This document shows, piece by piece, positions 9,370-63,929 of a stretch of 64,000 nt of DNA. The stretch lies in assembly GCA_025356475.1 (NCBI GenBank), contig JANXSX010000158.1:3882-67881 (forward strand). Direction: 5' to 3'. Source of the DNA: Isosphaeraceae bacterium (GTDB lineage: Bacteria; Planctomycetota; Planctomycetia; Isosphaerales; Isosphaeraceae). Within the stretch, counting starts at the first letter, position 1. Each line of letters begins with the position of its first letter. The notes under the pieces are model-generated. The model worked only from the letters and a program-made list of their open reading frames with translations, had not been told where the DNA came from and did no database searches. Both the position numbers and the translations under genes were made by a program.

Positions 9370-9428
9370 TGATCATCCGTGGTGGTTCTTGATCGATCTG
9401 TTCCCTGGCTTCTTGGTCGGAGATAGTC

Positions 9429-10082: not shown

Positions 10083-10417
10083 TCGCACCTGGTTACGACA
10101 TTCCCCTGAGCTGGTTCCTCTACTTTACCGCGATCGTCTTCGGTATCGGGCTGTTCGGCGTCTTGATTCGCCGGAATGCGATCGCTGTGTTAATGGCGAT
10201 TGAAATTATGCTCAATGCGGCGAATATCAACTTGATCGCGTTTTGGCGATACACTCCGGGGGCACCTGGTGAAGGGCCTCTCACAGGAGTCATGATGGCC
10301 ATTTTTGTGATCACCATCGCTGCCGCTGAGGTTGCTGTTGGGATCGGCCTGATCCTGCTCTGTTATCGGCGCTGGCAATCTGCTGACGTTGATCGCCTCG
10401 ATACTTTGAGTCACTGA
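10079..10417 (+). CDS. nuoK: NADH-quinone oxidoreductase subunit K
   Basis: At 112 aa with three TM helices, it contains MAIEIMLNAANINLIAF and AAAEVAVGIGLIL. The start overlaps the nuoJ stop (ATGA). Confidence 0.9.
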   Translation: MIAPGYDIPLSWFLYFTAIVFGIGLFGVLIRRNAIAVLMAIEIMLNAANINLIAFWRYTPGAPGEGPLTGVMMAIFVITIAAAEVAVGIGLILLCYRRWQSADVDRLDTLSH

Positions 10418-10466
10418 TCGATCCGACCCACGGCAGAGATTTGCCACGCTCCCGAGGCCCGCGCTG

Positions 10467-37978: not shown

Positions 37979-40219
37979 TCACTTTTTCGCCAAATTCACT
38001 TGATAGACCTTGCCGTCGAGATTTACAACAACTTCATCCTCAAAGGTCAAGAACTGGTTGTTGGTCGCCGACTGCGAACGAGCCAGCGTGAAATAGGCTT
38101 CGGAAAACTGTTCGACAACAATCGCCTTGGCCTCCTCGTCAGCCTTCACGTCAACGTCGATCCATCGATTATTCCTCTTGAAGAAGGTCTTGGCTCCGAC
38201 CTGTCGAACCGTGGGCTGAATCGGACCTCCACCATTTGGCGATGTCATCATCCCTCCCTTCGTCACCGGTCCCGCAGCCATCATTCCCCCTGATCCTGAA
38301 CCTTGAAGTCCGTATCGGGTTGAGCCACCGCTTGAAATTGAGGAAGGAGCTGCATTCTGAGCTTGGTTGAATGACTGCTTGATTCCTCGTTGTGAGACCC
38401 CGTCCCGACCTGAGACAACCGAGAGCCGACTAAGGCTCTCCATTGCCCGGCCTCGATTGTCTGCCTTGGCATGAAGATTCACGGTTTCATCGGCAAGGAA
38501 TGAGGTATAGGGAGTCAGGATTCCGTGCTTGGTGGAAAGAGCCACCAGTTCATCAGTCAACTCCTTATTATTCCCTTGCAGGTCGATCTGGTCGATGATG
38601 TCGCCGATCCGTCGGATGGCCCAGAGCTTCTCGACAAATTGATAGCCTGACGACCGATCCGAGCTCGCGAGTTCGGCGGGAAACTCAAACGAACGGGTCT
38701 CGGTGCCGACCTTCCCAGCCAGCCGGAGCTTGGTCTGACCCGACTGGCGGTATCGACCAACCCAGACGACCTGACCCCCATCGAAGAGGTCAGGGATATC
38801 GCGAGGGTACGTACGGTTGAGATCGGTTCCAGAAAGTTCAACCTTCAAGTCGGCAAGGGCCGGCGAGGTCAGCTTGGCCGAGAACCGACCGAGCGACCGC
38901 TCGAGATCCTCGTCGGGTTTGACGTATTCCGAGACCCCGGCGTTGCCGCCGCTCAGCCTATCGAGAAGTCGAGCGTTAACGTCAAACCCAACCCCGAAAG
39001 CGAAGAGTCTTGCCTTGTATCGGTTCGCATCTTTTGCATTCTTGGCAATTGCAATCTCCCGCAACTCGCCGGCGGTCGGTAAACCATCGGTCAAAAAGAG
39101 AACATAGTTGGGGCGATCATTGTTCGAGAGCATGCCCAAGGCCGTTTTCAAAGCCCCGTCGATGTTGGTGCTGCCCCCTTCTCGGATGTTGGCGACATAC
39201 CGTTGGGCCTCAGCACGCGATTCGCTGGAGTAACGCTGGAGTTCGGGCTTGAAGGACTCGATTCGGTCGTCGTAAACAACAATGTTGAACAGGTCATCAT
39301 CGCGAAGGTTGTTCAGTAGTCCAACCAGAGCGTTTCGCGCCTGTTCGATCTTCTTGCCTGACATCGAGCCCGACCGGTCGAGCACGAACACAACCGTTTT
39401 GGAACGGGGACGGGCATCGCTGGCCTTGACCTCCGGACTCGCCAGCACGAGGAAGTAACCATCCTCACTCGACTCAGGCCGGTAGCTTAGAACCGTCGCA
39501 CCAAGGGCACCCTCGGAAAGGGTATAAACGAGCCGGAAGTCCTTGTCGGGCCTTATGTCGCGACGTTCATACGTGACGATCACTTCATGGTCGTCACGCT
39601 TGCGAATCTCCGCGTCATCGGTCGGGCAATAGACGCTTTTGATCGGCTCCTTCGAGCGGATCTCAAGGTTGAGTTTGAGTTTTCCAACAGGCTTGGCAGT
39701 GAACTTTTGGGTCCCGAAGGGATAAACAAACTCAATCACCTCGTGGTTGCGTTTGCAGAGCTGGGTGTATCGCAAGGTCACCTTACGATCAGCACCAGGA
39801 GGGATCGGAAAGACGCTGGTTCGATACAGGCCCCGACCCATATATTCGACGAGGGCCGGGTCGCGCCGGGAGCGGACGATCTCCTCGTAGATCTTGCGAG
39901 CTTCGTCTTTCGGGAGCAGTCGGCCTGGCATTTCCTTGCCATCGACCATGAGAACCATGTTTTCGATCGCCCCTTCTTCGGGAAGGGGGAAGAGGTATTC
40001 GGCCTCGATCGTACCGGAACCTGAGTTGTGGAATGTCTGCGAGACGCGTACCTCAGCAACCTGGTCGCGGAGTTGGGCATCGACCATAACCTCGCGGATC
40101 TCGTAGTTGCGACCGGGTGGGGCGGTCGGTCGCCGATCGATGATCAGCCCCTGAGCGCTCAGATCGGGCGTCAAACTCAGCGCAACCAAACCGAGCCAGA
40201 TGCCCTGATGAATCTTCAT
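37979..40219 (-). CDS. Secreted VIT domain + von Willebrand factor A domain protein
   Basis: It has a signal peptide. The VIT pattern is VSQTFHNSGSGTIEAEYLFPLPEEGAIENMVLMVDGKEMPG. The vWA MIDAS is VVFVLDRSGSMSGKKIEQARNAL, GGSTNIDGAL and FLTDGLPT. Confidence 0.88.
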   Translation of the reverse strand: MKIHQGIWLGLVALSLTPDLSAQGLIIDRRPTAPPGRNYEIREVMVDAQLRDQVAEVRVSQTFHNSGSGTIEAEYLFPLPEEGAIENMVLMVDGKEMPGRLLPKDEARKIYEEIVRSRRDPALVEYMGRGLYRTSVFPIPPGADRKVTLRYTQLCKRNHEVIEFVYPFGTQKFTAKPVGKLKLNLEIRSKEPIKSVYCPTDDAEIRKRDDHEVIVTYERRDIRPDKDFRLVYTLSEGALGATVLSYRPESSEDGYFLVLASPEVKASDARPRSKTVVFVLDRSGSMSGKKIEQARNALVGLLNNLRDDDLFNIVVYDDRIESFKPELQRYSSESRAEAQRYVANIREGGSTNIDGALKTALGMLSNNDRPNYVLFLTDGLPTAGELREIAIAKNAKDANRYKARLFAFGVGFDVNARLLDRLSGGNAGVSEYVKPDEDLERSLGRFSAKLTSPALADLKVELSGTDLNRTYPRDIPDLFDGGQVVWVGRYRQSGQTKLRLAGKVGTETRSFEFPAELASSDRSSGYQFVEKLWAIRRIGDIIDQIDLQGNNKELTDELVALSTKHGILTPYTSFLADETVNLHAKADNRGRAMESLSRLSVVSGRDGVSQRGIKQSFNQAQNAAPSSISSGGSTRYGLQGSGSGGMMAAGPVTKGGMMTSPNGGGPIQPTVRQVGAKTFFKRNNRWIDVDVKADEEAKAIVVEQFSEAYFTLARSQSATNNQFLTFEDEVVVNLDGKVYQVNLAKK

Positions 40220-40518: not shown

Positions 40519-42729
40519 TCAATAACGCTTCTTGGTCGGCAACTGAGCCACCAAGGTCGCGGTGTAATCAGAGCCTGGCCCGTTGACGGTCAAAGCGTTC
40601 AGGGCAGTGCCGTTGGCATCGGTCACGCCCCCCGCTCCGGCATTGATCCGGAACTGGAACAGTTGATTGGACCTAAGTCCAGCTCCAATTGTGAGATCGG
40701 CGACGTGTGTACCGGCGGTATAAACGACGGATGTCACAGGGAACGTTCGTCCCATCACGTATTTCCGACCGACACGGCCCCCTGGCAGACTCAGCGTATA
40801 GTTCCCTGGATTCTGAGCCGGACCTTGGGCAACGTCTCCATCAAATGTGAGCTTTAGTCCCTGAACGCGACCTCGGCTGATCTTGGCACTGACACCGGAA
40901 ACATGGCGTGTCGAGAAGCTGCTGGTCGCCAGGATTGGGGTCGCGACGACCACGACCGGGGTCGTCGTGATGAACTTTGGTGGGGTCGGAGCGGGTGCGG
41001 GGGTCGGCGTGATTGGCGTCGGTGTTGTCGGAGTCGGCGTGGGCGTCGGAGTCGGTGCCGGTGCCGTTACAATCGGGGTGGGAGGCGGGGTGATCACAAC
41101 GGGAGGTGTCGGGGCGGCGACTTGTACGTAGAAGATCTTCGAGTCGCTGAGAGCTGGCACCCCGTTATCGGTCACATTGACGACAAATGCCAATTTCGCG
41201 GGGCCAGCCGTGGGAGTAAACCGGATCTGGCCGGTGTCGGGGTTGATGGTCGCCGCCCCAGGGCTGCCGGGCGCGAGTGAGTAATGGAGAAGTTGTCCAT
41301 TATCTGCGTCAGTCGCGTGCGCCTGAGCCGTGAAGAGTTGCCCAATTGTGGCTGTTCCGTCCGGAGGTGTATCGAGTTTGGGGGCCTGATTCGGACTCGA
41401 GTCGGCGATCAGGAGTGGTACAACCGCGTTAGAGCCCAGGGTTGCTCCCATGCTCGGGCCGGTCAAGACCAGGGAAATCGCCCGGTATCCCAGATTCTTG
41501 CCATCGTCGGCCACCGGAACTGTGAAGGTCATGGAAGTCTGTCCCGGGGCAAATGTCAGTGTCCCACTGGTTGGCGTATAGTTCACACTTGGCTGGGCAG
41601 AACCGACGAATCCGATCGGATTGGCGACCGAGTCGGACGTTTTGTAACCAACAGTGTCCGTGCCTGTGGTCGCTCCGACTCGGGTCACAGTAATCGTAGC
41701 AACGCCTGCATTTCCAGGTACGACATAAGTCGGCCGGGCGATACTCGGATACACGGCCGGTGTCGGAAGTGGGCTCGCACTCGTCCCGGCGAACTGGAAT
41801 TTCGCCGGAACCTGGACATTCCAGCCGGTATCGCTGAGGCTTGCATAGTCGAGCGAACTGAGGGCGATCCGCGAACCCGTGGTCAAGGCACTGCTTACGC
41901 CAGCACTCGAATCGAGCAAGTCGCGAGAGCCGTCGGAGACGACATCGTTCTTGAAGCTGAATCCTTCCGGCCCGATTGGGACAGGAAGACCCCCGTTCGC
42001 TGCTTTGGTCGCGGGGCCGGCGTAGACTCCGTGGATCTGGTCGGGGGTCTCAAGTCCTGCGACGAATCGCTGCCAGCTCGGCGCGGTTCCAACTCCTAAG
42101 ACATGGGTTAACTCTCGAGTCGCGATCGTGGTGAAATCGACGTTTCCGGCCGCGATGGAGTCAGGCCCCCCCCCAAACGACCACTTGGTGCTCGATGTAT
42201 CGAACGAGATCGAGCCTCCCCAAGGGGCGAACGATGTGGGAGCAATGCCGGTTGCACCGACTTTGCCTCGTCCAGCAACCAGGTCCTTCCATGTTTGGTC
42301 GCCGAGTGCCGTGGATGTTGCGGGCGAGCTGGTTGCATAGGTGTTGCCCGAGAGTCCACGTCCACCTGCGTACACGATGATCGTGTTGTTCGCGACGTTG
42401 AGGTCGTTGATCCGTTTCACCCCGCCCGTCGAGGGGTCGAGGATGGTCCCTGTCCAGCTCTTGCCGGTGGCGGGAGTGATCGCGGCCAGCGAGTCGTTCA
42501 GTGAACTGGCCACATTGTTGGCGACTTGTTGAAGAGCGTCGCGCTTCGCCTGAGTGTTGAAAAACCCGGTCGTGTCGAAGTCGTAGCGAACGTCGATTGT
42601 GACGCTGAGAACCTCACGGGTTTCGAGACGGAGCAGGTCGGGACGAAGGGTCCGCTTGGCGCGACGAACCTGGGATTCGTCGCGTCCATTACCAGTCAGC
42701 CATCGTGTCATCGCCGTGTTCATGGTCAT
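40519..42729 (-). CDS. Large secreted/surface protein with Calx-beta-like and cadherin/Ig-like segments and a Pro/Thr linker
   Basis: The Calx-beta-like segment is ATITVTRVGATTGTDTVGYKTSD...YTPTSGTLTFAPGQTSMTFTVPVADDG. The cadherin-like segment is ATDADNGQLLHYSLAPGSPGAATINPDTGQIRFTP. The P/T linker is PAPTPTPTPTPTTPTPITPTPAPAPTP. Confidence 0.7.
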   Translation of the reverse strand: MTMNTAMTRWLTGNGRDESQVRRAKRTLRPDLLRLETREVLSVTIDVRYDFDTTGFFNTQAKRDALQQVANNVASSLNDSLAAITPATGKSWTGTILDPSTGGVKRINDLNVANNTIIVYAGGRGLSGNTYATSSPATSTALGDQTWKDLVAGRGKVGATGIAPTSFAPWGGSISFDTSSTKWSFGGGPDSIAAGNVDFTTIATRELTHVLGVGTAPSWQRFVAGLETPDQIHGVYAGPATKAANGGLPVPIGPEGFSFKNDVVSDGSRDLLDSSAGVSSALTTGSRIALSSLDYASLSDTGWNVQVPAKFQFAGTSASPLPTPAVYPSIARPTYVVPGNAGVATITVTRVGATTGTDTVGYKTSDSVANPIGFVGSAQPSVNYTPTSGTLTFAPGQTSMTFTVPVADDGKNLGYRAISLVLTGPSMGATLGSNAVVPLLIADSSPNQAPKLDTPPDGTATIGQLFTAQAHATDADNGQLLHYSLAPGSPGAATINPDTGQIRFTPTAGPAKLAFVVNVTDNGVPALSDSKIFYVQVAAPTPPVVITPPPTPIVTAPAPTPTPTPTPTTPTPITPTPAPAPTPPKFITTTPVVVVATPILATSSFSTRHVSGVSAKISRGRVQGLKLTFDGDVAQGPAQNPGNYTLSLPGGRVGRKYVMGRTFPVTSVVYTAGTHVADLTIGAGLRSNQLFQFRINAGAGGVTDANGTALNALTVNGPGSDYTATLVAQLPTKKRY
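40976..41112 (-). repeat. Low-complexity Pro/Thr-rich coding tract within the 736-aa surface protein
   Basis: The minus-strand translation is PTPPVVITPPPTPIVTAPAPTPTPTPTPTTPTPITPTPAPAPTPPKF. The DNA shows imperfect ACN-CCN periodicity. Confidence 0.85.
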
Positions 42730-43070: not shown

Positions 43071-44741
43071 GTGAGCGACAGCTTGAAGCGGGTCTATGGG
43101 ATCGACCTGGGGACGACCTACTCAGCCATTGCTTATGTCGACGAGCACGGCAAACCTGTCATCGTCCCCAACCAAGAGAGCGAGCGAATCACCCCCTCGG
43201 TCGTTCTGTTCGACGGCGAGAACATCATTGTCGGCAATACCGCCAAAGAAAGCGCAAAAGTCGAAGCGGATCGAGTGATCGGTCGCGTCAAGCAGCAGAT
43301 GGGCGACCCTAACTTCGTATTCGAGCACGACGGCCAGGCCTATTCACCCGAGGATATCAGCTCATTTATCCTCCGGAAGGTTGTTGGTGACGCTCAGATT
43401 GCGCTTGCACTCGATGAGCCGATCACGGATGTCGTCATTACGTGCCCTGCTTATTTCGGCACGGACGAGCGTGAAGCGACGGCGAATGCCGGGCGTCTTG
43501 CCGGGTTGAATGTCCGCGCCATCCTGAACGAACCAACCGCCGCCGCCATCGCTTACGGGCTCGAACAAGGTGAAGACCAGACGGTGCTGGTTTATGACCT
43601 TGGCGGTGGTACTTTTGACGTGACCATGATCGAGATCAAGAATCGCCTGATCCGGGTCGTCTGCACGGGAGGCGATCATCGGCTCGGCGGAGCACTCTGG
43701 GACGAGGCGATCGTCGTTCACCTTGCAGAAGACTTTCGGACCCAGACCGGGCTCGAATCCGACCCGATGGACGACCCCGAGGTCCTCAACGACCTCTTCC
43801 TCCAAGCCGAGCGCGGTAAGAAGACCCTCTCCCAGCGCGAGAAAGCCCCCTTCCGAGTCACCCATTCCGGCCAACAAGCACGGGTGGAACTCGATCGCCC
43901 CAAGTTCGATGAGATTACTAAGCACCTGCTCGATCGGACCGTGGAACTGACGCGAGAGATGCTGGCGGATGCAGCCGCTAAGGGAGTCACGAAGTTCGAC
44001 AAGATCATCCTCGTTGGTGGAGCGACGCGGATGCCGCAGGTCCGCGACCGACTCGTCGCCGAGTTCGGTGGCGACCCCGAAAGCTACGATCCTGACGAAG
44101 CAGTGGCCAAAGGAGCTGCGCTTTATGGGCTCAAAGAGTCGCTCCAAGATGAGGTCATGGCTGTTCTGACTCCGACCAACCCGAACGCGGAAGGGGCAGG
44201 AGGAGTGCTCGATCTCGCTGCCGTCAGCGAGGCCGAAGTCTCTGCGGCGCTCGACAAGATCGAACGCGAGATCGGCTTCACCCTCACCGGACCGGTTCGG
44301 GAGTTGGTCAGTACTCGGATCGTCAATGTTCTCTCAAAGAGTCTTGGTGTCATCGCTAAAGACGATGCGAACAAGTCCGTTGTTGTTTATCTGCTCAAAC
44401 GCAACGGCGAGGTTCCCATGGAGCACTCGGCGGAATTCGGCACCGATTCCGCGAATCAGGCAGGGGTCGACATTCAAGTCATGGCGGGCGAGCGGGATAG
44501 CACCGAGCCCACCGATTGTAAAGATGTCGGCACGGCGACCCTCAACCTGCCGACGGGACTCCCCATGCGGAGCCCGATCAGGGTCAAGTTCTCCATCAGT
44601 AAAGACGGTCGACTGAGTGTGACTGCGACGGATTTGACGGGTGGTGGCTCGATCGATGTCGAGTTTGAAACCGAAGCCGTGATGAACGCAGATGATGTCT
44701 CCGAACGCTCAAGCTCACTTCGGCTCCTGAACGTCTCGTAA
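43071..44741 (+). CDS. Non-canonical Hsp70-family ATPase, lidless (556 aa)
   Basis: It has a GTG start. All NBD motifs are present: YGIDLGTTYSAIA, NEPTAAAIAYG, VYDLGGGTFDVT, IILVGGATRMPQV and DPDEAVAKGAALYG. A beta-sandwich substrate-binding region follows (DIQVMAGERD...IRVKFSISKDGRLSVTATD). There is no helical lid and no EEVD tail. Confidence 0.9.
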   Translation: MSDSLKRVYGIDLGTTYSAIAYVDEHGKPVIVPNQESERITPSVVLFDGENIIVGNTAKESAKVEADRVIGRVKQQMGDPNFVFEHDGQAYSPEDISSFILRKVVGDAQIALALDEPITDVVITCPAYFGTDEREATANAGRLAGLNVRAILNEPTAAAIAYGLEQGEDQTVLVYDLGGGTFDVTMIEIKNRLIRVVCTGGDHRLGGALWDEAIVVHLAEDFRTQTGLESDPMDDPEVLNDLFLQAERGKKTLSQREKAPFRVTHSGQQARVELDRPKFDEITKHLLDRTVELTREMLADAAAKGVTKFDKIILVGGATRMPQVRDRLVAEFGGDPESYDPDEAVAKGAALYGLKESLQDEVMAVLTPTNPNAEGAGGVLDLAAVSEAEVSAALDKIEREIGFTLTGPVRELVSTRIVNVLSKSLGVIAKDDANKSVVVYLLKRNGEVPMEHSAEFGTDSANQAGVDIQVMAGERDSTEPTDCKDVGTATLNLPTGLPMRSPIRVKFSISKDGRLSVTATDLTGGGSIDVEFETEAVMNADDVSERSSSLRLLNVS

Positions 44742-44778
44742 AGCGACTTGAAGAGATTGTTCAAAAGGAGTTGTGCTC

Positions 44779-46842
44779 ATGTCCATTGCCGTTGGGATCG
44801 ACCTTGGGACAACAAACTCTGTTGTGGCTTACCGCAACAGCTACGGTCGTCCTGAGGTCATCCCCAACCGAGACGGACATCCTATCACCCCGTCGGTTGT
44901 CTACTTTGGAACGAATCCTCCCGCGATCGGCCAGGAAGCGAAGGAGTACGCACGGCTGGGGACCGAGGAAGTCGCCAGCTTCTTTAAGCCACATATGGGC
45001 AGCAACCTCTACCAACTGAACTTCGGAAACCAGCTTTACGACGCAACAACTCTCTCCGCGTTGGTCCTGAAACGTTTAAAAGAAGATGCCCAGGCCAAGC
45101 TCGGCCAGGTCGTCGATCGCGCAGTGATCACGGTCCCCGCCTATTTCGGAGACCCCCAACGTAAGGCAACACTCGACGCCGGCCAGCTTGCAGGCCTCAA
45201 TGTCCTGAGAATCATCAACGAACCGACTGCCGCCGCACTTGCCTATGGTCTCCAGAAAACAGGTTTAAGTGAAACAGTTCTTATTTATGACCTAGGTGGT
45301 GGTACCTTCGACGTGACCGTTGCCCGGATCACCTCCGAGGAAATCATAGTCCTGTCCACGGTCGGCGATCATGACCTGGGCGGTAAGAACTTTGACGATC
45401 GAATCGCCACCTTCCTCGCTGAGAAGTTTCGCGCGGATACGGGTCTTGACCCACTCGACGACCCCGTGGCGCTCAACGAGGTTCTCGTCCGGAGCGAGCA
45501 AGCGAAGTGGCAACTCTCCGAGCGGAGTTCGACACGCATCAGCTTGCAACTTGGCTCTGAACGTCGTAGTTATGACCTCTCGCGTCCCGAATTCGAGGCC
45601 ATGACTTCAGCTCTGATGGATCGGACTCGAAGCCTCACCGAAGAGGCTCTCGCGGAAGCAAAACTCGACTGGACCAGGTTGAGCGGAGTCCTACTCGTAG
45701 GGGGCTCGACCCGCATGCCGATGGTTCGCCACTTCGTCCGCGAGATGTCTGGCCAGGATCCTCGGGCCGGGGTCAATGTCGACGAAGTGGTTGCACTGGG
45801 AGCCGCGATCCAGGCGGCGATGGATTCTGGACTCCCGACCAGCGATGCGACCCCTCAGTTTTCACTCGCAGGTGCGCGTCGGGTTGTCGACGTGATGTCC
45901 CATAGTCTCGGCGTCGTGGCTCGCAGCCCCGACAATTCCGCCTACATCAATGAGATCATCGTTCGCCGCAACCAACCGATCCCGGCAGACGACTCAAAGT
46001 CCTATCTGCACTCAACGTATGGTGGTGCCAACGACCGACTGGAAATCTATCTGACCCAAGGCGAAAGTGAACGCCCACTCGATTGCACCGTGCTTGGTAA
46101 ATACGTTTTTACCGGAATTTCGGCGACTGATGCAGAAGTGCAGGTTGATGTCAAAATGTCTTACGATATCAACGGTGTCGTGCAGGTCGGTGCCCTCCAG
46201 CGTGATACGGGACATCGACTCGCAATGACCGTAGAGAAGGTGCCCAACGATCTCTCCTGGTTGGGCCGTCCGCCGCAGAGTGCACAGATTGGCCAAGAAG
46301 CCGATCCCACCTCGATCTATTTATTGATCGACGTCTCTTCGAGCATGGCTGGCCCCCCACTTGAGGAAGCGCAAGCCGCAGCTCGTGCGTTCCTGGAAAA
46401 GTGCGATTTCACAAGAGCCGAGGTTGGGCTAATCTCGTTCTCGAATCAGGTCACACTCGAAGCTGAGGCCACGGACAACCCACGCCGAGTCCAAGCCGGC
46501 ATCGGTCGCCTGGAAGCTGACGGGACGACGAACCTGACCGACGCCTTAGAATTAGCACACGTGAAGCTCACCCTATCCGCGCGACGTAAGTATGTCGTGC
46601 TCTTGACCGACGGCTATCCCGACGCGCCCGAGAGTGCCGTCCAGCAGGCTGTCCAGTCGCGAGAGGCGGGTATCGAAATCATTGCGATAGGGACTGGGGA
46701 CGCCGACCGGGATTATCTGCGACGCCTTGCCAGCACAGACGAGGGCTCGATCTTTGCACCCAGTGGCGAACTTGTTCATACCTTCGGGCATATTGCTCGT
46801 GCGATCGCTCAAGGGGGCCGTGGGTTGCGGAAGATGCCATGA
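44779..46842 (+). CDS. Hsp70-family ATPase fused to a C-terminal von Willebrand factor A domain
   Basis: AAGGAG lies 8 nt upstream of the ATG at 44779. NBD motifs are GIDLGTTNSVVA, NEPTAAALAYG, IYDLGGGTFDVT, LLVGGSTRMPMV and NVDEVVALGAAIQA. The SBD-beta-like part is LEIYLTQGESE...VKMSYDINGVVQVGA. From about 46315 there is a vWA domain with a complete MIDAS: YLLIDVSSSMAG, DGTTNLTDAL and VVLLTDGYPD. Confidence 0.9.
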   Translation: MSIAVGIDLGTTNSVVAYRNSYGRPEVIPNRDGHPITPSVVYFGTNPPAIGQEAKEYARLGTEEVASFFKPHMGSNLYQLNFGNQLYDATTLSALVLKRLKEDAQAKLGQVVDRAVITVPAYFGDPQRKATLDAGQLAGLNVLRIINEPTAAALAYGLQKTGLSETVLIYDLGGGTFDVTVARITSEEIIVLSTVGDHDLGGKNFDDRIATFLAEKFRADTGLDPLDDPVALNEVLVRSEQAKWQLSERSSTRISLQLGSERRSYDLSRPEFEAMTSALMDRTRSLTEEALAEAKLDWTRLSGVLLVGGSTRMPMVRHFVREMSGQDPRAGVNVDEVVALGAAIQAAMDSGLPTSDATPQFSLAGARRVVDVMSHSLGVVARSPDNSAYINEIIVRRNQPIPADDSKSYLHSTYGGANDRLEIYLTQGESERPLDCTVLGKYVFTGISATDAEVQVDVKMSYDINGVVQVGALQRDTGHRLAMTVEKVPNDLSWLGRPPQSAQIGQEADPTSIYLLIDVSSSMAGPPLEEAQAAARAFLEKCDFTRAEVGLISFSNQVTLEAEATDNPRRVQAGIGRLEADGTTNLTDALELAHVKLTLSARRKYVVLLTDGYPDAPESAVQQAVQSREAGIEIIAIGTGDADRDYLRRLASTDEGSIFAPSGELVHTFGHIARAIAQGGRGLRKMP

Positions 46843-47687
46843 ATGCGAATCTCAAGCAAATGAAAGAGCTTGGGCTCGCTGGTGCCTTGGGTGCGGTCTT
46901 CGGCCTCTACCTCTTCGTTGAGTTAGTCCAGACCGACTCCATCTGGCTCCGTGACGTTCTGGCGGGAGTCGCGATTGGAGGCTCGATCGGGTTCTTCCTG
47001 AATGGTTCGACCCCTCTTCGGGACAGCGCCTACCTCGGCTTCTCGCGGGCCGCGAGTTTGGGCACGCTCGCTGGTGCGGTGGGTGGAGCGGTCGGCTTGC
47101 TCGTTGGCGAGCTAATCTTGGGAACATTTCAAGGCGGATTGGTTGGGCGAGCGGTCTCGTGGTCGGTCCTCGGCCTCGGTATCGGTACAAGTCAGGGAGT
47201 CGCCAGTAAATCAGGTGCAAAACTCACCTTTGGCGTGATCGGCGGTACGATCGGTGGGTTTGTGGGCGGGTTCCTCTTTGAAGCGATCCGGGACCTCTTC
47301 GGCAACCGTTACGACCTTGGACAGGGGCTCGGAGCTGTCGTCTTGGGCGCAGGACTTGGGATCTGTCTTGCGTTGGTGGAACAGGTTCTCCGTCGCGCAT
47401 GGATCGAGGTTAAGAGTGGCCGTCAGGAAGGACGGACTTATCTCATCGACCACAAATCTTGTACCCTTGGTCTCGACGAACATGTCGAAATCGGTCTTTT
47501 CGGCGACCTCTCCGTGGCCAGGAAGCATGCCATGATCGAGTCGACCGCGACCGGTTACTACCTAAAGAACGAATCCGTTTCTGGGGAAACCCGGGTCAAC
47601 GGCGGTCCCATCCAAGGTCCGAAATTGCTTGTGAATGGTGATATGATCGAACTTGGCAAGACACGACTCGTTTTTCGGAGTCGCTAA
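46839..47687 (+). CDS. Glycine-zipper polytopic membrane protein with C-terminal FHA domain
   Basis: The start overlaps the upstream stop (ATGA). The N-terminal roughly 190 aa carry repeated GxxxG-rich hydrophobic segments (GALGAVFG, GVAIGGSIGFF, GTLAGAVGGAVGLLVG, GVIGGTIGGFVGGFLF, GAVVLGAGLGICLA). The C-terminal FHA pattern is CTLGLDEHVEIGLFGDLSVARKHAMIE...YYLKNESVSGETRVNGGPI...LLVNGDMIELGKTRLVFR. Confidence 0.85.
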   Translation: MNANLKQMKELGLAGALGAVFGLYLFVELVQTDSIWLRDVLAGVAIGGSIGFFLNGSTPLRDSAYLGFSRAASLGTLAGAVGGAVGLLVGELILGTFQGGLVGRAVSWSVLGLGIGTSQGVASKSGAKLTFGVIGGTIGGFVGGFLFEAIRDLFGNRYDLGQGLGAVVLGAGLGICLALVEQVLRRAWIEVKSGRQEGRTYLIDHKSCTLGLDEHVEIGLFGDLSVARKHAMIESTATGYYLKNESVSGETRVNGGPIQGPKLLVNGDMIELGKTRLVFRSR

Positions 47688-47705: not shown

Positions 47706-49094
47706 GTGCCCCAGGTTGCGAAAGGCTGGAGTCTGATCATCGAACGTGGCCGCGAGCCCGGGCGTAGATACGCGTTGAAGGGATCTTCAGTAGTCCTGGG
47801 TGCTTCGCCCGAGCCAAGCGAAGGGCTTGCGCTGATGGACCAGGAGGGAAATTCACCCAAGCGAATGGCCCCGCGTCAGGCGCTTCTCGAAGCTCAGGGG
47901 GACACGTGGACCTTGCGTGACCTCGATAGCGCTGGCGGCACTTTCGTCAATCGTCAACGGGTTCTCTCAGGGCAGGCTCGGCTCCTTTCCGATGGTGACG
48001 TCATCCAGCTCGGCTCGGTCCACCTCAAGTTGAATTCTACAAGTGAACTTCCAAGCATCCCGAACGTTCCCAAAACCGAATGCCATTGGCCATTGCTTAT
48101 CGGTGGCGGGATGAGCTGTCGTAGCTTTGATGAGATTTTGCCGGTCTCAGCACAGCGGTGGACTCTGCTTCGAGACGAACTCGTGAAAGGCGAACTCGCC
48201 ACGAAGCTGGTCGCTTTCGGTCGCCCCGACCTTGCGCCCAGAGCCAATCACCCAGGTTCCGCCGACGAGCGGCTCGATGCCTGGCTTTCCTCACTACCGA
48301 CGACAAAACCGGCCCAAGCTGAGATCGAGGTTCATCCCCAGCGGCTAGTGATCGCGAGCGCGCCAGGTTCCGCTCATCGCCGGACCCTGCAAATCAGCAA
48401 CGTCGGTTTTGGTCTCCTCAGAATCAAGGCCCGGGTCGAGCCCGCCTCGGCGGCTTGGCTCAAGGTCATTCCTCCCTGGAATACGGAGACACATGTTGTC
48501 GATGCATTCACAGGAAGCATTGAAGTGATCGCCCCCGACTCGTTTACGAAGCCAGTCCAAGCCACTCTCGTGCTTGAGACTCGGGAACGGACTTGTCGAG
48601 TCGAAGTCGTTCTGGAACCGACAACGAAACGAACGGCACCAGGCCCATCAACGATTGCGGGTACGCAGGCATTAGGAATATTCGATCGATGGCAAGAGTT
48701 TCCCCTTGGCACACGATTGTTCACCACAGCCATAGTCGCAGCAATGTTGCGACTCCTCATAGGACTGGCCAATCTTCTGATAGGTGACTCGCCGACGGAT
48801 TTGCGTGGTCCGATCCTCGTGTTCGCGGGTCTGGGGGCAATCTTAGGTCTGGCCACATTGCGCTCAAGAGCAAGGGGCTTGGATCTCGCGTTTGTCGCGA
48901 CCGCCGGGGCGGGTGTTGGTCTGATCTTGGCCGTCATGATTGTCGCCGTGGCCCGCGCGGGCGAACCAATCCTGGGGTCTTTGAGCACCGTGTTGCCAGT
49001 CGTCGTCCTCGTCTGGGGGCTAGTCGCTCTACCTGTAAGCTTGATGACATCTCATGGTCCGAATCGATCCAAAGATAAGGGAAAGATTGCATGA
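47706..49094 (+). CDS. N-terminal FHA domain protein with beta-sandwich-like middle region and C-terminal transmembrane cluster
   Basis: It has a GTG start. The FHA pattern is RRYALKGSSVVLGAS...RQALLEAQGDTWTLRDLDSAGGTFVNRQRV...LLSDGDVIQLGSVHLKL. The middle segment IEVHPQRLVIASAPGSAHRRTLQISNVGFGLLRIKARV looks like a PapD/ASH-type Ig fold. Three to four hydrophobic helices lie at the C-terminus. Confidence 0.85.
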   Translation: MPQVAKGWSLIIERGREPGRRYALKGSSVVLGASPEPSEGLALMDQEGNSPKRMAPRQALLEAQGDTWTLRDLDSAGGTFVNRQRVLSGQARLLSDGDVIQLGSVHLKLNSTSELPSIPNVPKTECHWPLLIGGGMSCRSFDEILPVSAQRWTLLRDELVKGELATKLVAFGRPDLAPRANHPGSADERLDAWLSSLPTTKPAQAEIEVHPQRLVIASAPGSAHRRTLQISNVGFGLLRIKARVEPASAAWLKVIPPWNTETHVVDAFTGSIEVIAPDSFTKPVQATLVLETRERTCRVEVVLEPTTKRTAPGPSTIAGTQALGIFDRWQEFPLGTRLFTTAIVAAMLRLLIGLANLLIGDSPTDLRGPILVFAGLGAILGLATLRSRARGLDLAFVATAGAGVGLILAVMIVAVARAGEPILGSLSTVLPVVVLVWGLVALPVSLMTSHGPNRSKDKGKIA

Positions 49095-50086
49095 GCATGC
49101 GATTACTTATTCTGGTCTTTCTGGCGATTTCCGGAACTTTACTGGCACAGGACCGTTCGGTCGTGGTCACCCAAGTCGACGAGAAGGGTTTCCCCGAGGT
49201 CAACCTGGAACTTGAGGTTCGGAACATTGATGGGACGTTTCTGCTCGACGCCTCTCGCGAATCGTTCCGAGTGACGGAGTACGATCGCAACGTCGAGATC
49301 CTCAAGTTCAACGCACCCCAGTCGCTCCAGCGCAAGCCGACAACAATCGTTTTAGTCGTAGATCATAGCGGCAGTATGCGGGCTGAGGATCGGATCGGCG
49401 GGATGAAACGTGCGGTTGCATCGTTTCTAGAAGGTCTGCCCGAGGGGTCACGAGTGGCGGTGATCGGGTTTAGCTCTCAGGTGCGAGTGATCTGCCCTTT
49501 CACGGAGTCTTTCAATGATGTTCAAGCCGCCGTTGATGGACTCTCTCCGATGGGTGGGACTCGGTTTTACGATGCTGTGGCCGAAGCGCTTAGGCTCATC
49601 GGTGAGGAGCCAGGGCGTCGGTCGGTTCTTGCCCTGACCGACGGGATCGACACCGAGAGTCGCGAAGCGTCGATCGAAAGTGTCGTCAAACTCGCCCGAA
49701 AATTGGGTTTGCCCGTCCATACGCTGGGACTTGGAAACGAAGCCTTGATCGCCTCCGACGGCATGCGCGTCATGGCCGAGTCGACACGAGGCCAATATTA
49801 TCCCGCAGTCGATGCCGCGAAGCTCAAATCGATTTATGAAGAAATCGCCCTTCGTCTCCGGTCAAGCTACAGCCTAACCTATCGGACCGATCGACCGCTC
49901 CAGGACGGGACCCTCCGGCCCGTGAAGGTCTACTTTGAAGGGATCACCAAGGCCGCTGAAGCTGCTGTGTATGTGCGCGGAATGGTCGTGCCCGCCAGAG
50001 GATGGTCATGGCTGTTTGTGGTCTTGGTCTCAGGGCTGGCAATTGCCCACTGGCTTCCATGGGGTCGCGTCTCAACGCCAACATGA
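49091..50086 (+). CDS. Membrane-anchored von Willebrand factor A domain protein (signal peptide + C-terminal TM)
   Basis: The start overlaps the upstream stop (ATGA). The signal segment is LLILVFLAISGTLLAQD. The vWA MIDAS is IVLVVDHSGSMRAEDR, MGGTRFYDAV and VLALTDGIDTES. The C-terminal helix is WSWLFVVLVSGLAIAHWL. Confidence 0.88.
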   Translation: MSMRLLILVFLAISGTLLAQDRSVVVTQVDEKGFPEVNLELEVRNIDGTFLLDASRESFRVTEYDRNVEILKFNAPQSLQRKPTTIVLVVDHSGSMRAEDRIGGMKRAVASFLEGLPEGSRVAVIGFSSQVRVICPFTESFNDVQAAVDGLSPMGGTRFYDAVAEALRLIGEEPGRRSVLALTDGIDTESREASIESVVKLARKLGLPVHTLGLGNEALIASDGMRVMAESTRGQYYPAVDAAKLKSIYEEIALRLRSSYSLTYRTDRPLQDGTLRPVKVYFEGITKAAEAAVYVRGMVVPARGWSWLFVVLVSGLAIAHWLPWGRVSTPT

Positions 50087-50982
50087 CACCACCTGCGATC
50101 CGTTACCCTCTGCCTGCCCTTGCACTCTTGGTGCTACTCGGCCTGGTCACTTGGCGTGGCGCAGATGGCGTGCAGGCGATTCGCAGCGACCTGACATCAA
50201 GGTGGGCGAAGCTCACCGAGCGACCGGCTGTCCCATTCCCTGCCTCCACCGATCCGCTGGTCCTGGCAGGTGCGATCCATGAGCGTGTTCTGATCCTTGA
50301 GGATGAAGTTCCCTACTCATCGCAGCCTGACGGACCGACGATTGGGTTTATTCGACATCGAGAGTTCGCGGACTTTTATGATCGTTGGCCGATCAAGGGA
50401 GATGCGACTCACATTCGGGTCGGGAATCGTCGGCCACTCGGCTGGGTGGAAATTGGAAAGGCCATTTCTTGGACGACGCGACTCGTGTTGTTACCATCAG
50501 AGGATCATGCGTCGATCTTGACTGAGAGCGGGGCGAGCTTCGATCTGAAAGGGAGCCCGAAACCGATCCTCGGGCAGAATCCCAACCAACTCCACATCCA
50601 TAACTGGGGAGAGACTGGCGCGTGGCACGTCGGCGGGCAGGGGGTTGTGCTCAAGGCCGACACAGTCCCAGCGAACTGCTGGGGGGTCTGGTTGACCCGA
50701 TCCGAGTTGCTGGCCCTCATTGGTCGGGATCGGTCACAGTTGAACACATCTACGAGCAGGCCTAACCTTGTGATCAGGGCGTTGCTCGGTCTGCCGATTA
50801 ACGACCGACCGCTCTCCAGTGAAGAGACGGGGATGGCGCTGACATTGCTTGGACCGGCTGTCTCCCAAGAAGGTGTGACAACCAAGCTCGATGCACTCGC
50901 CAGATTGAACGAAGAGTGGAAGCCCGATGCCGTCTGGGGTGGTGTCGAATACCGTGGAGTGCGACTTATTGATATCCCATGA
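50083..50982 (+). CDS. N-terminally anchored protein of unknown function, last gene of the Hsp70/vWA/FHA operon
   Basis: The ATG at 50083 overlaps the upstream stop (ATGA). The N-terminal hydrophobic helix is PLPALALLVLLGLVTW, followed by about 270 aa in which I recognised no motif. Confidence 0.7.
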   Translation: MTPPAIRYPLPALALLVLLGLVTWRGADGVQAIRSDLTSRWAKLTERPAVPFPASTDPLVLAGAIHERVLILEDEVPYSSQPDGPTIGFIRHREFADFYDRWPIKGDATHIRVGNRRPLGWVEIGKAISWTTRLVLLPSEDHASILTESGASFDLKGSPKPILGQNPNQLHIHNWGETGAWHVGGQGVVLKADTVPANCWGVWLTRSELLALIGRDRSQLNTSTSRPNLVIRALLGLPINDRPLSSEETGMALTLLGPAVSQEGVTTKLDALARLNEEWKPDAVWGGVEYRGVRLIDIP

Positions 50983-60677: not shown

Positions 60678-63600
60678 TCAGGGACTTCCATATAAGACAT
60701 ATCCTGCCCAGTGGACAGGGTCGGCAAACTTCGGGTTCCTAGCCAGTGTCTCTCTCGCGTTGACGAGGGATTCGCCTGGGCGAAGTCCCTCGATCAGTCC
60801 GCGTTGAAGTTCGTCGATCATGATGGGGGCGGACGCGTCCGGCGGCTTCCAAAGCGGGAGGACGACCGCCGCAGAGCCCGTAAGAATCGCTCCGTGGGCG
60901 AATTGCTCCAGAGACCGGCCGGACGTGAGTTCGCCCCGAGAAGGATCAACCCCGGCGACGATCAGAGTTCGCGTTCTGATGGCTCGATCGTTGAAGCTGC
61001 CCGATCGGAGTTGAACGGACTCCGTCCCAGATTCGGATGAGTTGAGGACCGAATTTCGACCCATGAATGCAGAAAGGGTCGTCGACTCCAGTGATCCAGC
61101 CTCGACCCGCAGCCCATTTGTCCCCGCGAGTTCCTTCCAAGCTGCCATTGTCGATCGATCTATCCCTGGGACGGACGAGTCATCGTTGGGTAGGCCCACC
61201 GATTTGCTGGGAATCATAGGCCTAGGCCGAGTGAGGAGGAGGTCAAGCGACGTTGCGCGTGAGAGTTCGTACCGTCGATAGAGGCGTCGTTCCCTCCCGG
61301 TGACTTCGACCGGCATGGCACTCAGCGACTCGTCCAGAACCAGGGTCAGCCGAGAGACCCCGATCAATCCCGCATTGAATCGACTGATCAGCACATCGTC
61401 GAGCAGGGACTCCCAACTATAGGGTAAACCCGGAGGTTTTGGCCCTGCTCCCGTGAGTTCGGGTTCAGGCGCTAGCGGCCCAAGCGGGAGGTCATCCGCA
61501 GGAGACCGGTAATCGGCGAGGCCCCGACCTCCGTCTCCGAGTCTGCTTCGCCAGGTCCGGACGATCCGATCGAGTTCTAGGCGTCCGAGCGTAATTCGAC
61601 CCACTTCGAGTGGCTGACCGCCTCGAATCAAGAAACCAACGAGTGATGTGTTACTCACAACAGTGAACGCCAAAATCGCCTCGGTCGGCCCGAGCTTGAA
61701 CTCGCTCGGATCGAGACCAACGTGTGGGTCGGGCCGATGGGTGGCCACGGCCAGAGCGTGAAGGGGCCGGTTCGCTGCGAGTTCGATGCGGATCAAGCCC
61801 CGCTCCGTCCTTGCGACAACTGCAGGCTGGTTGCTTTGCATCGCAGCTCGGTACGCTTTCGTGGCCTCGGCGGTCAGGTCGAGCTTCTCCAAAATTTCGG
61901 CACGTTCCAGGTTGGCAAGGGCCGCTAGGTTGATGTTTCCGGCGTGACGGTGAAGGTCGGCGGCTCGAAGGAGAGGTTCGATCGCCAGTCGGCGGTTTGT
62001 CCCGGTGGCGAGCCTTCGGCCTTCGGAATGAGGGTCGTCACTCGGTTCGACGACCAGGTTGGCTCGGCTACGGACCGTGACGCGGGCGAGGTTCCATTCA
62101 GCGTCTCCTGGTCGAGCTCGATCCAGAGCCTCAATTGCGGACGACCAATCTCCCGAGGACGCGGCGGCCACCGCAATCCGAAGTCGGTTGGATCGAGCAA
62201 GGTTCTTGTGTTCACCAGTTGGGATGTGATTGAGGACAGCGAGCGCCTTTTGCTGGGCTTCACCAAGGTTGCCGCGAGCCAGAGCCACTTGCGATTGGAG
62301 ATTGAGCCAATCCAGCGACTCCGCTATCACAGGATCGGAATTTGCGAGCCCAATGATCCGCTCGAGACGTTGCTCCGCCTGGGTGATCTTACCCTCCGCT
62401 AGATCATTGGCAATGAGCAGTGCCTGGGCAATCAACCGAGTCCGCGTTGCATGCGTAGAGGTGTTCATCGTCGCTAGGAACTCATCAATCACAATGCGTG
62501 CGCGGGTGGGGTCGCCTGTTCGATTGGTGTCGGGATCAGGGGTCAGCAACACGGCTTTCCAAAGCATGATGTCGGCTGATCTGTCGTGCAGGCCAACGAT
62601 TTCGAAGCTCGCCTGGGCGCTGTCGAGCGTCTTGATTACGGTCTCAATAGACCGCCCTGCATTTTGTTCGCTACTCGCTCGAAGTGCGGCCACTTCGGCG
62701 GCAGCGTGTCGGTCCAAGCCTGGGTCGGCTTCAAGGATTCTGATCAGTCCAGTGAGATCGGTAGTCGGGTCGCGATCAAGGCGCTTGCGAGCCTCGTCAA
62801 GTTTCCGGGCCAAGGCTTCGGGGAACTCCGCCTCGGTGGACTCGACCCGTGGACGATAAAGACGCCGCCAGGGTCGGAATGCAAGCTCAGCCGCATCGTC
62901 GAGTGAAAACTTCAGTGATCGTCTGATCAAACCCTCAGCATCAAGAACCTCAATGCGTCCTGAGTCGTCGGCGATCGCAAGGCGACGCCCCTCGGGATCG
63001 ACCGGATCAACAGAGACCACTGCCGATGTGAGAGGGAGTTCCTGCCAGAGCGAAACTGGCTTTGCCCCGTGCTCGGAACAGGGAATGATCAACAGCCGAG
63101 TCGGCAGAGCGACCGCAAGTTGACCGCCCGCTGACAGCCAGTCAAGGCCGAGAGGGCAGCCGGGAAGGGCCCAACGTCTCGGGGGCACGCGACCTGGTCG
63201 TCCTGCAATTTCGACGGATGCCTCACCTCTGGCACGTGCCAACCCTCCCTGAGGATTGATCTTCACCAGAGCATCGGTCGATGGCTTCAAGTCCGATTCG
63301 AGCTTGATCCGTTGATGATTCGCCAGGGTGACGACCCAGCCTCGATCACTGCCGACTCGGTGGATAGCAACCACACCCTGCTCTGCATTGCTCGCCTTGG
63401 CCGTTGCGGTTGGTCCGATGAGTTGGTCGGTGCCCATGAGCACATATCGGTTGATCTGCCCATTCGCATAACCCACGAGTAGTGGGCCACCCGATTCGTG
63501 ACCAGGGGCGAGGGCAGTCACATTCCCGTCCTTGTGCTGGGACAGGATCCTAGCCACGCCGTCACCGAGTTCCCAAAAAGTCAGACCCTGCAAATCGCCC

Positions 63601-63929
63601 GTGATCGGTAGGCCCGGCGGTGTGAGTGCCAGAGCTTGGACGGTCACCCCAGGAGGGGAAACCGTGACCGGTTCAGGCGTACGATCTGGCCAGTAGATGG
63701 CGAATCGACCATCTGCGAACCGAACACCTAGACGCCGCGATGAGACCGGACCTCCCCAGGCAATTTCGACCACAGCGGCCGACCAGCCTTCAGGACGAGT
63801 GAGGGTCAAACCATCGGTGAGCTCAACGGGTCGCATCAACACAACAGGTCGTGGCGTGGCGACCTGAGAATCACAACCGACCGCGACCACACATAGGGTC
63901 GCGAACAACGCCCGAAGGAGCCGGCTCAC
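60678..63929 (-). CDS. Lipoprotein with beta-propeller-like N-terminal region, TPR-like helical repeats and C-terminal CHAT domain (catalytic dyad apparently degenerate)
   Basis: It has a GTG start. The lipobox is LCVVAVGC. The CHAT C-terminal signature is GSAAVVLPLWKPPDASAPIMIDEL...DPVHWAGYVLYG. The expected His (HxxxHG) and Cys (LSAC) positions read NSVLNSSESG and LIVAGVD. Confidence 0.75.
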   Translation of the reverse strand: MSRLLRALFATLCVVAVGCDSQVATPRPVVLMRPVELTDGLTLTRPEGWSAAVVEIAWGGPVSSRRLGVRFADGRFAIYWPDRTPEPVTVSPPGVTVQALALTPPGLPITGDLQGLTFWELGDGVARILSQHKDGNVTALAPGHESGGPLLVGYANGQINRYVLMGTDQLIGPTATAKASNAEQGVVAIHRVGSDRGWVVTLANHQRIKLESDLKPSTDALVKINPQGGLARARGEASVEIAGRPGRVPPRRWALPGCPLGLDWLSAGGQLAVALPTRLLIIPCSEHGAKPVSLWQELPLTSAVVSVDPVDPEGRRLAIADDSGRIEVLDAEGLIRRSLKFSLDDAAELAFRPWRRLYRPRVESTEAEFPEALARKLDEARKRLDRDPTTDLTGLIRILEADPGLDRHAAAEVAALRASSEQNAGRSIETVIKTLDSAQASFEIVGLHDRSADIMLWKAVLLTPDPDTNRTGDPTRARIVIDEFLATMNTSTHATRTRLIAQALLIANDLAEGKITQAEQRLERIIGLANSDPVIAESLDWLNLQSQVALARGNLGEAQQKALAVLNHIPTGEHKNLARSNRLRIAVAAASSGDWSSAIEALDRARPGDAEWNLARVTVRSRANLVVEPSDDPHSEGRRLATGTNRRLAIEPLLRAADLHRHAGNINLAALANLERAEILEKLDLTAEATKAYRAAMQSNQPAVVARTERGLIRIELAANRPLHALAVATHRPDPHVGLDPSEFKLGPTEAILAFTVVSNTSLVGFLIRGGQPLEVGRITLGRLELDRIVRTWRSRLGDGGRGLADYRSPADDLPLGPLAPEPELTGAGPKPPGLPYSWESLLDDVLISRFNAGLIGVSRLTLVLDESLSAMPVEVTGRERRLYRRYELSRATSLDLLLTRPRPMIPSKSVGLPNDDSSVPGIDRSTMAAWKELAGTNGLRVEAGSLESTTLSAFMGRNSVLNSSESGTESVQLRSGSFNDRAIRTRTLIVAGVDPSRGELTSGRSLEQFAHGAILTGSAAVVLPLWKPPDASAPIMIDELQRGLIEGLRPGESLVNARETLARNPKFADPVHWAGYVLYGSP

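Follow-up and report, generated by a model that had tools for sequence, protein, structure and literature searches.

An Hsp70 with a predicted MIDAS-type vWA domain in place of its lid, its lidless paralogue, and their conserved operon in Isosphaeraceae

In this study, we analysed the gene for a fusion of Hsp70 and a von Willebrand factor A (vWA) domain in a 64,000-nucleotide stretch of DNA from an Isosphaeraceae bacterium of the phylum Planctomycetota (GenBank assembly GCA_025356475.1, contig JANXSX010000158.1, positions 3,882 to 67,881 of the forward strand). The whole 64-kb stretch is referred to as the window, and positions are counted from its first letter. The fusion gene, hspV, is an uninterrupted open reading frame (ORF) at 44,779–46,842 on the plus strand that encodes 687 amino acids (aa). 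Only 37 nt separate it from the upstream gene hspA, which encodes a second, unfused Hsp70, and four further genes (fha1, fha2, vwa, and unk) follow on the same strand. A ribosome-binding site, AGGAG, was read at 44,766–44,770 on the plus strand, 8 nt 5′ of the ATG. The GTG at 44,773 is unlikely to be the start codon because it is too close to this site, and a length of 687 aa is likewise called on independent contigs.

An earlier note on this DNA had described one polypeptide with an Hsp70 nucleotide-binding domain (NBD), a short β-subdomain of the substrate-binding domain (SBD-β), and a C-terminal vWA domain. The architecture and all of the motifs quoted there are present in the ORF. The Hsp70 motifs are GIDLGTTNS (residues 6–14), DLGGGTFDV (171–179), and LVGGSTRMP (306–314), and those of the vWA domain are DVSSS (518–522), TTNLTD (583–588), and LLTDG (608–612). 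HspV matches the Pfam HSP70 profile with an E-value of 2.6e-122, and the match stops at the onset of the lid (profile position 498 of 599). Residues 513–659 match Pfam VWA (E-value 6e-20), and VWA_2 and VWA_3 match this part as well. The AlphaFold 2 (AF2) model of HspV was built from a 125-sequence alignment (predicted local distance difference test, pLDDT, 86.8; predicted template modelling score, pTM, 0.70). The helical lid (SBD-α) is absent from this model, in line with the end of the Pfam match, and the proposal that the vWA domain replaces the lid agrees with both.

The domains of HspV are all encoded on the plus strand. The NBD comprises residues 1–350 (44,779–45,828) in the AF2 model and has an intact catalytic set. 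Residues D8, K70, E148, D171, T176, and D178 correspond to D8, K70, E171, D194, T199, and D201 of Escherichia coli DnaK, on which they were mapped, and are invariant in alignments of 78 and 125 sequences. The SBD-β (residues 367–486; 45,877–46,236) is complete in the model with eight strands and is thus of full length, not short as the note had it. HspV aligns to DnaK up to DnaK residue approximately 507. In the SBD-β, loop L1,2 is lengthened, and the arch residues are exchanged for the family motifs SHSLG, D-x-S-x-Y, and PLDC. Lid helix A gives way to a connector (residues 487–510; 46,237–46,308) consisting of the motif VPxDLSWLxxPP followed by a flexible segment at residues 503–507, which is modelled with low confidence, as is the interdomain linker. 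The motif itself is modelled with high confidence, including a short helix of four residues (493–496), and is near-invariant from Planctomycetota to Bacillota; it may be a functional remnant of lid helix A. The vWA domain (residues 511–680; 46,309–46,818), delimited by Pfam and the AF2 model, has a Rossmann-type fold. The NBD and SBD-β together superpose on docked, ATP-type structures of BiP, DnaK, and Ssb (root-mean-square deviation, rmsd, 2.3–4.5 Å over approximately 520 columns), and the model does not superpose on undocked ADP-state Hsp70 structures. Hydropathy analysis revealed no hydrophobic segments in HspV or HspA.

The Hsp70-vWA fusion is genuine and belongs to a large, multi-phylum family that is common in databases. 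The identical 687-aa product is encoded on 10 contigs of separate assemblies, and at least 120 clusters at 70–85% identity agree with HspV in length and Pfam architecture. An exhaustive search also found more than 100 full-length relatives at 35–48% identity among 50%-identity representatives. With hundreds of full-length relatives, the frameshift or stop between the SBD and vWA domain that the earlier note had named as a possible cause of the fusion is ruled out. The conserved connector motif also bridges the Hsp70/vWA junction, and the probability that an assembly or frameshift artefact joined an Hsp70 gene to a vWA gene is negligible. The architecture occurs in Planctomycetota, Bacteroidota, Bacillota, Desulfobacterota, and Acidobacteriota. 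Named carriers include Saprospiraceae/Lewinella, Bacteroidales, Neobacillus, Sutcliffiella, Lachnospiraceae, Desulfobacterales, and Aminicenantes, and the nearest named relatives of the window are Singulisphaera, Tundrisphaera, and Tautonia. The relatives are labelled in databases merely as “Hsp70 family protein” or “VWA domain-containing protein,” and the label of the C-terminus of HspV at JGI is “YegL.” The family has database entries and is uncharacterised.

Judged from its sequence, the vWA domain of HspV is of the predicted metal ion-dependent adhesion site (MIDAS) type, with all metal-coordinating residues present. The predicted MIDAS codons on the plus strand are those of D518 (46,330–46,332), S520 (46,336–46,338), S522 (46,342–46,344), T584 (46,528–46,530), and D611 (46,609–46,611), and an alignment with PDB structures (8s05, CMG2) places T584 on the MIDAS Thr. 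All five residues are 100% conserved in 120 Isosphaeraceae-type clusters, which bears out the earlier description of the MIDAS as intact. A lack of MIDAS conservation among homologs, which the note had named as grounds for rejection, was not observed. In 229 distant relatives, conservation of the DxSxS motif and the last MIDAS Asp is 96% or higher; the Thr, however, is clade-specific and is replaced by Gly in 69% of them. Two types of MIDAS loop can be distinguished. HspV of the window and the smaller part of the relatives have DGTTN, and most relatives have VGYGN together with an insertion.

HspA is encoded at 43,071–44,741 on the plus strand (Pfam HSP70, E-value 6e-108). It is a lidless Hsp70 of 556 aa consisting of an NBD, an insert of approximately 50 aa, and an SBD-β, with no fused domain. 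HspA aligns to HspV through the SBD-β and ends there, so it is lidless and unfused, as previously proposed for the upstream paralogue. Its scores are 450–560 bits to the Hsp70 of approximately 550 aa that lies beside Hsp70-vWA in distant phyla and 270–340 bits across paralogues. The two genes adjoin in approximately 27 of 33 loci from distant relatives and, where the flanking sequence is long enough, in nearly all Isosphaeraceae loci. The phylogenetic comparison with DnaK, HscA, and HscC suggested in the note was performed as a neighbour-joining tree of 468 NBD and SBD columns with YegD as the outgroup; the tree is rough, being distance-based and without bootstrap. HspA and HspV are each monophyletic and form sister clades outside DnaK, HscA, HscC, and YegD. 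HspV also scores below the NCBIfam cut-offs for DnaK and HscA, with 402 against 648 bits for NF001413, 389 against 823 bits for TIGR02350, and 339 against 709 bits for TIGR01991. From sequence comparison, the orthology and gene context of HspA and HspV are near certain, and the adjacency of the genes together with their separate orthologous clades supports the earlier view of the paralogues as a pair.

The co-occurrence of HspA and HspV, together with one fused ORF on a single contig, suggests that the two proteins may form a heteromer. The fused ORF, of 953 aa, is on contig P0273 (a metagenome contig from ENA), where a complete HspA-like part (residues 5–545) is in frame with the first approximately 390 HspV-like residues. 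If real, this fusion would support physical association of HspA and HspV. Tandem Hsp70-Hsp70 ORFs were considered as “Rosetta stone” evidence for a heterodimer; they yielded this one clear HspA-HspV case on one contig and were not relied on.

The catalytic and allosteric NBD residues are retained in both the HspA and HspV clades, while the arch and loop L1,2 are remodelled. This combination suggests that HspA and HspV are working ATPases with a dedicated rather than a general client. HspV resembles DnaK, HscA, and HscC in its NBD residues, its SBD-β, and its predicted docked, ATP-type conformation. It differs from them in the absence of a lid, the less hydrophobic linker, the remodelled arch and L1,2, and its position on a separate branch. 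The equivalent of Arg167, which contacts J-domains, is retained in nearly all HspV sequences and not in HspA.

HspV might instead be a specialised but ordinary folding chaperone, a DnaK paralogue whose vWA domain serves only to localise the protein or to recruit vWA-rich or secreted clients, for instance the VIT-vWA and vWA proteins of the neighbourhood. The 36–38% identity to DnaK over the NBD and SBD-β and the presence of all catalytic residues are compatible with such a function, as are the three further vWA proteins encoded nearby. Furthermore, one HspV orthologue is isolated, with housekeeping genes around it. This planctomycete orthologue (locus L072, 7,431–9,563), which is 63% identical in the C-terminal half, lies between CutC and SMR-type genes, and there is no hspA, GrpE, FHA, or GTPase gene within 7–10 kb of it. 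However, HspV branches separately and is accompanied by a fixed paralogue, and the remodelling of the arch and L1,2 is conserved in a family-specific manner. The operon partners are strict across phyla, no DnaJ is present, and hspV is coupled to genes for membrane FHA proteins. We therefore consider an ordinary folding function quite unlikely.

The four genes downstream of hspV encode predicted membrane or exported proteins, and all are on the plus strand. The first, fha1 (46,839–47,687), starts within the hspV stop codon (ATGA) and encodes 282 aa; its top Pfam match is Yop-YscD_cpl, followed by FHA. In the AF2 model (pLDDT 89, pTM 0.85), Fha1 has a six-helix, glycine-rich membrane domain (residues 2–184) and an FHA fold (residues 187–281). 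The latter superposes on GarA and OdhI with an rmsd of 1.4–1.6 Å. Among the 50 best PDB matches of a fold search, no structure covers the membrane domain, and only the FHA part is matched. The best 120 of 438 Fha1 sequence matches are all Isosphaeraceae-type orthologues at 59–68% identity and give no clue to the origin of the protein. Fha2 (47,706–49,094; 462 aa) has an N-terminal FHA-like domain, a middle region without domain assignment, and four C-terminal transmembrane helices, and matches Pfam FHA and then Yop-YscD_cpl. The FHA domains of Fha1 and Fha2 are homologous (hhalign 97%). The third protein, Vwa (49,091–50,086; 331 aa; Pfam VWA_2 and VWA), carries a vWA domain of the MIDAS type (DHSGS, GGT, TDG) between a signal peptide and a C-terminal transmembrane anchor. 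It scores above the TIGR03436 cut-off and is predicted to be periplasmic. The last gene, unk (50,083–50,982), taken from gene calls on independent contigs, encodes 299 aa and has a signal or anchor at the N-terminus of its product. Unk has no Pfam match and no recognisable domain, and is conserved at approximately 36% identity in Isosphaeraceae loci. Overlaps of 4 nt occur at the hspV/fha1, fha2/vwa, and vwa/unk junctions, and overlap is also found in relatives; by the evidence of these overlaps, the operon from hspV to unk is translationally coupled.

The FHA domains of Fha1 and Fha2 lack residues that bind phosphothreonine. In the alignment with GarA, the corresponding sites are GL, AxxH, and Gly in Fha1, and GA (GN in relatives), AxxQ, and Gly in Fha2. 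None of the Fha1 and Fha2 orthologues examined retains the phosphothreonine-binding Arg, and nearly all of approximately 25 have also lost the Ser; the Asn is replaced by Gly in both proteins of the window. The loop of Fha2 that normally holds the FHA Ser contains a conserved acidic insert, D-Q-E-G. Neither a Ser/Thr kinase nor a PP2C phosphatase was found in the approximately 45 of the 49 larger window ORFs that were scanned, and these contain no AAA+ or MoxR domain either. The loss of the binding residues together with the lack of a kinase or phosphatase suggests that these FHA domains are YscD-like and do not read phosphothreonine. YscD/PscD of type III secretion systems likewise has a cytoplasmic FHA fold without phosphothreonine-binding residues on an inner-membrane protein, whereas Fha1 and Fha2 have other membrane domains and no secretion-system context. 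A second comparison is offered by E. coli, in which yegD (HSP70 family) adjoins yegI (Ser/Thr kinase), pphC (PP2C), and yegL (vWA) at 2,147,674–2,153,128 of NC_000913.3. YegD, however, is distant and SBD-less, and its NCBIfam model gave a score of only 53 bits; moreover, no such kinase or phosphatase was found in the scanned ORFs of the window.

The order hspA, a variable insert of 0–4 kb, hspV, fha1, fha2, vwa, and unk is kept in approximately 65 Isosphaeraceae-type loci in addition to the window, and the locus was found in every Isosphaeraceae genus sampled. HspA is 74–88% and HspV 65–85% identical within Isosphaeraceae. The flanks of the locus in the window are housekeeping genes, including nuo, glyA, prfB-like, GluQ-RS-like, and RNase D genes. 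The synteny, the housekeeping flanks, and the high identity suggest that the locus is vertically inherited rather than an island. The insert between hspA and hspV contains genes for Uma2-family (PF05685) putative endonucleases in relatives, with up to three or four in tandem (L005, 7,287–7,994; L007, 7,239–7,916; L013, 5,023–7,954; and 11 further Isosphaeraceae-type loci). In locus L036, the Uma2 genes are replaced at this position by a PIN gene plus two unknown genes. The downstream vWA protein of L036 (14,432–16,528) is 698 aa long with N-terminal squalene-hopene-cyclase-like repeats, unlike the 331-aa protein of the window.

Outside Isosphaeraceae, the pair is found in a different gene context. 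The order is GrpE, HspA, HspV, a zinc-ribbon (DZR)/Fn3 protein of approximately 1000 aa, DO-GTPase2, GAP1-N2, and DO-GTPase2, and it is almost always kept. It was found in approximately 25 metagenome loci and on contigs with Pfam labels from Neobacillus, Bacteroidales, Saprospiraceae, and others, some of which show it only in part. DO-GTPase genes were found in the loci of all canonical relatives. One related locus also holds TIR_2 and ABC/FtsX genes. The zinc-ribbon/Fn3 protein begins with ENYFILLxLDP, which is J-domain-like and without HPD (L125, 12,063–12,668; L126, 3,989–5,173; L034, 11,064–11,423); a J-domain at this N-terminus was rejected, as the Pfam DnaJ match is not significant (best E-value 0.07). 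The Pfam name Fn3_SaeA, followed as a lead, pointed only to the unrelated alarmone synthetase SaEAS and noise.

Systems of this composition have been predicted computationally. In a literature search on Hsp70-vWA, Hsp70 with vWA and FHA, and DO-GTPase/GAP1-N2, only one relevant report was found (Kaur, Burroughs, Iyer, Aravind 2020, eLife, PMC7159879). Its passages on GAP1-N2 DO-GTPase (“GTPase-centric”) systems describe an HSP70 and GrpE theme, sometimes with a second HSP70, in what are predicted to be conflict systems with a thresholding response to invaders. The second HSP70 is described there as lacking a peptide-binding domain, whereas HspA has an SBD-β. The HSP70 passages and the text supplement of that report make no mention of a vWA domain fused to HSP70, and the text supplement names neither HSP70 nor GrpE.

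The locus of the window shares with this theme an orthologous Hsp70 pair, proximity to membrane proteins, and extra vWA proteins. It differs in having Fha1, Fha2, Vwa, and Unk in place of the DO-GTPase, GAP1-N2, Fn3, and GrpE, and pairwise comparison of these two sets (with DZR/Fn3 as the Fn3 protein) gave hhalign probabilities that are all below 1%. Fn3 and GAP1 genes were never found in the approximately 65 Isosphaeraceae-type loci. In at least six relatives (S. acidiphila, Tautonia, and metagenome-assembled genomes), DO-GTPase2 and/or GrpE lie upstream, beyond a divergent gene for a VIT-vWA protein; the DO-GTPase is upstream, for example, in L016, L011, and L001. The features that define GAP1-N2 systems are absent from the window, and the locus is thus a derivative that shares the chaperone core rather than a member of the system. 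What is newly described here is the Hsp70 pair rewired to membrane proteins with degenerate FHA domains, a variant that does not appear in the account of these systems in the passages of PMC7159879 on HSP70.

Its ancestry raises the question of whether the operon is an anti-invader system of the abortive-infection type, in which the Hsp70 pair sets the threshold and Fha1, with its glycine zippers, is a membrane-damaging effector. The passages cited predict a conflict role for the parent systems, and TIR_2 occurs in one related locus. The six glycine-rich helices of Fha1, for which the 50 best PDB matches hold no structure, and the mobile Uma2 and PIN genes inserted inside the locus in relatives also point in this direction. 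On the other hand, none of eight proteins of the locus has a match in PADLOC-DB 2.0, and the window operon encodes no recognisable nuclease, protease, or TIR effector. The syntenic, housekeeping-flanked, and highly conserved Isosphaeraceae locus also looks vertical and not like an island. An anti-invader function in this form is unlikely in our view, although as to role it overlaps the explanation that we prefer.

We propose that HspA and HspV form an ATP-driven two-Hsp70 clamp in which a dedicated partner is held at the membrane through the MIDAS, and we regard this as the best explanation, with a chance slightly better than even. For the MIDAS tether taken on its own, the chances are about equal either way. 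The pair is lidless and branches separately within the Hsp70 family, and it would be ancient and co-inherited. In most bacteria, it would act as the chaperone module of membrane-associated GAP1-N2/DO-GTPase systems, with its own GrpE and zinc-ribbon/Fn3 partner. Both proteins are probably active, allosterically coupled ATPases, and their β-domain clefts appear to be reshaped for a dedicated client, not for general unfolded protein. The cytoplasmic vWA domain of HspV would stand in the place of the lid, and its MIDAS metal would coordinate an acidic residue on one particular partner. As the SBD docks on the NBD and undocks again, driven by ATP, the tethered partner could be moved, loaded, or released. 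The Fn3 protein is the probable partner in canonical systems, where the GTPases would gate the output. Fha1, Fha2, Vwa, and Unk of the same coupled operon replace the Fn3 and GAP1 partners in Isosphaeraceae, and the partner of HspV there is probably Fha1 or Fha2. Given the cytoplasmic FHA domains on inner-membrane proteins and the periplasmic Vwa, the Hsp70 pair would act at the cytoplasmic face of a transmembrane complex. The ATPase activity, the contact between the MIDAS and its partner, the formation of a heteromer, and the biological role are all inferred here.

NTPase motors that work with a MIDAS-type vWA domain holding a client or partner include the MoxR AAA+/vWA pairs and ATPase-vWA fusions such as subunit D of magnesium chelatase and midasin/Rea1 with its MIDAS domain. 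The vWA domain of HspV would have the role that a separate vWA co-chaperone has for MoxR AAA+ ATPases. HspV shares only this logic, because its motor is an actin-fold Hsp70 and not an AAA+ ring; the likeness is an analogy and does not imply homology of the ATPases. The parallel to MoxR-vWA that had been drawn in the earlier note is reasonable in this sense, and the same framing was already used for the parent systems in the passages of PMC7159879 that concern them.

Several observations weigh against the proposed clamp. The interdomain linker VLLLDV is only partly retained in HspV, as RRVVDV, and the AF2 model leaves the placement of the vWA domain relative to the SBD unfixed. The MIDAS Thr is missing from most of the family. 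No GrpE, DO-GTPase, GAP1, or Fn3 partner is encoded in the entire window, and no J-domain was detected in any partner. The missing GrpE and GTPase leave nucleotide exchange and ATPase stimulation unaccounted for here. Furthermore, hspA or any partner is missing beside some hspV genes (loci L119 and L072). The candidate MIDAS ligand, the conserved D-Q-E-G loop of Fha2, is conjectural, and the family and its parent GAP1-N2 system are known from computation alone.

The actin fold of the NBD and weak Pfam MreB_Mbl matches would also allow HspA and HspV to be an FtsA- or MreB-like polymer or scaffold, anchored by the FHA proteins, for envelope growth or budding division in planctomycetes that lack FtsZ. 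Such a role would suit a strongly conserved locus in every Isosphaeraceae genus sampled, with its membrane anchors and periplasmic partners, and cytoskeleton-like assemblies are suggested for GAP1-N2 systems in the passages of PMC7159879 that deal with them. However, any Hsp70 gives such MreB matches, and the full SBD-β and the association with GrpE point to a chaperone cycle. Relatives also occur in bacteria that have FtsZ, and we judge this putative polymer role to be very unlikely.

A more elaborate form of the two-Hsp70 clamp can be envisaged, in which Isosphaeraceae domesticated a conflict-system Hsp70 pair as a transmembrane machine that is inherited vertically and needs no kinase. HspV would grip the conserved acidic loop in the degenerate FHA domain of Fha2 by its MIDAS, and the Hsp70 cycle would send force or a signal through the FHA proteins to the periplasmic Vwa. 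This would be an integrin-like inside-out link, possibly for envelope remodelling in FtsZ-less budding bacteria. We regard this extension as speculative and improbable.

The mechanism of Hsp70 is known almost wholly from lidded proteins, and the natural exchange of the lid for a MIDAS domain provides a test of lid function. The Hsp70-vWA family likewise tests whether Hsp70 allostery can work in a tethered actuator instead of a folding clamp. The predicted GAP1-N2 GTPase systems gain a concrete conserved chaperone core, HspA and HspV-vWA. The Isosphaeraceae case shows that this core can be rewired to very different membrane partners, which bears on the shift of modules between conflict and housekeeping roles.

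Upstream of the operon, a divergent gene (37,979–40,219, minus strand) encodes a VIT-vWA protein of 746 aa that is TIGR03788-like and below the cut-off. The gene and the operon are syntenic in several Isosphaeraceae, and it is uncertain whether the protein is part of the Hsp70 system. Between this gene and hspA lies a gene for a Calx-beta protein (40,519–42,729, minus strand), which is present in this species only.

Farther from the operon, an ORF of 859 aa at 3,488–6,067 on the plus strand encodes a NuoB-NuoC-NuoD fusion (20-, 30-, and 49-kDa complex I domains) and is followed by nuoI-, nuoH-, nuoJ-, and nuoL/M/N-like genes. A strong negative AT skew of −0.24 to −0.29 at 8,001–12,000 coincides with the genes for the very hydrophobic membrane subunits of complex I, and is thus attributed to codon and amino-acid bias rather than to a special element. 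At the other edge of the window, a gene at 60,678–63,929 on the minus strand encodes a protein of 1083 aa with a C-terminal CHAT (caspase-like) domain, the remainder of which has no Pfam match.

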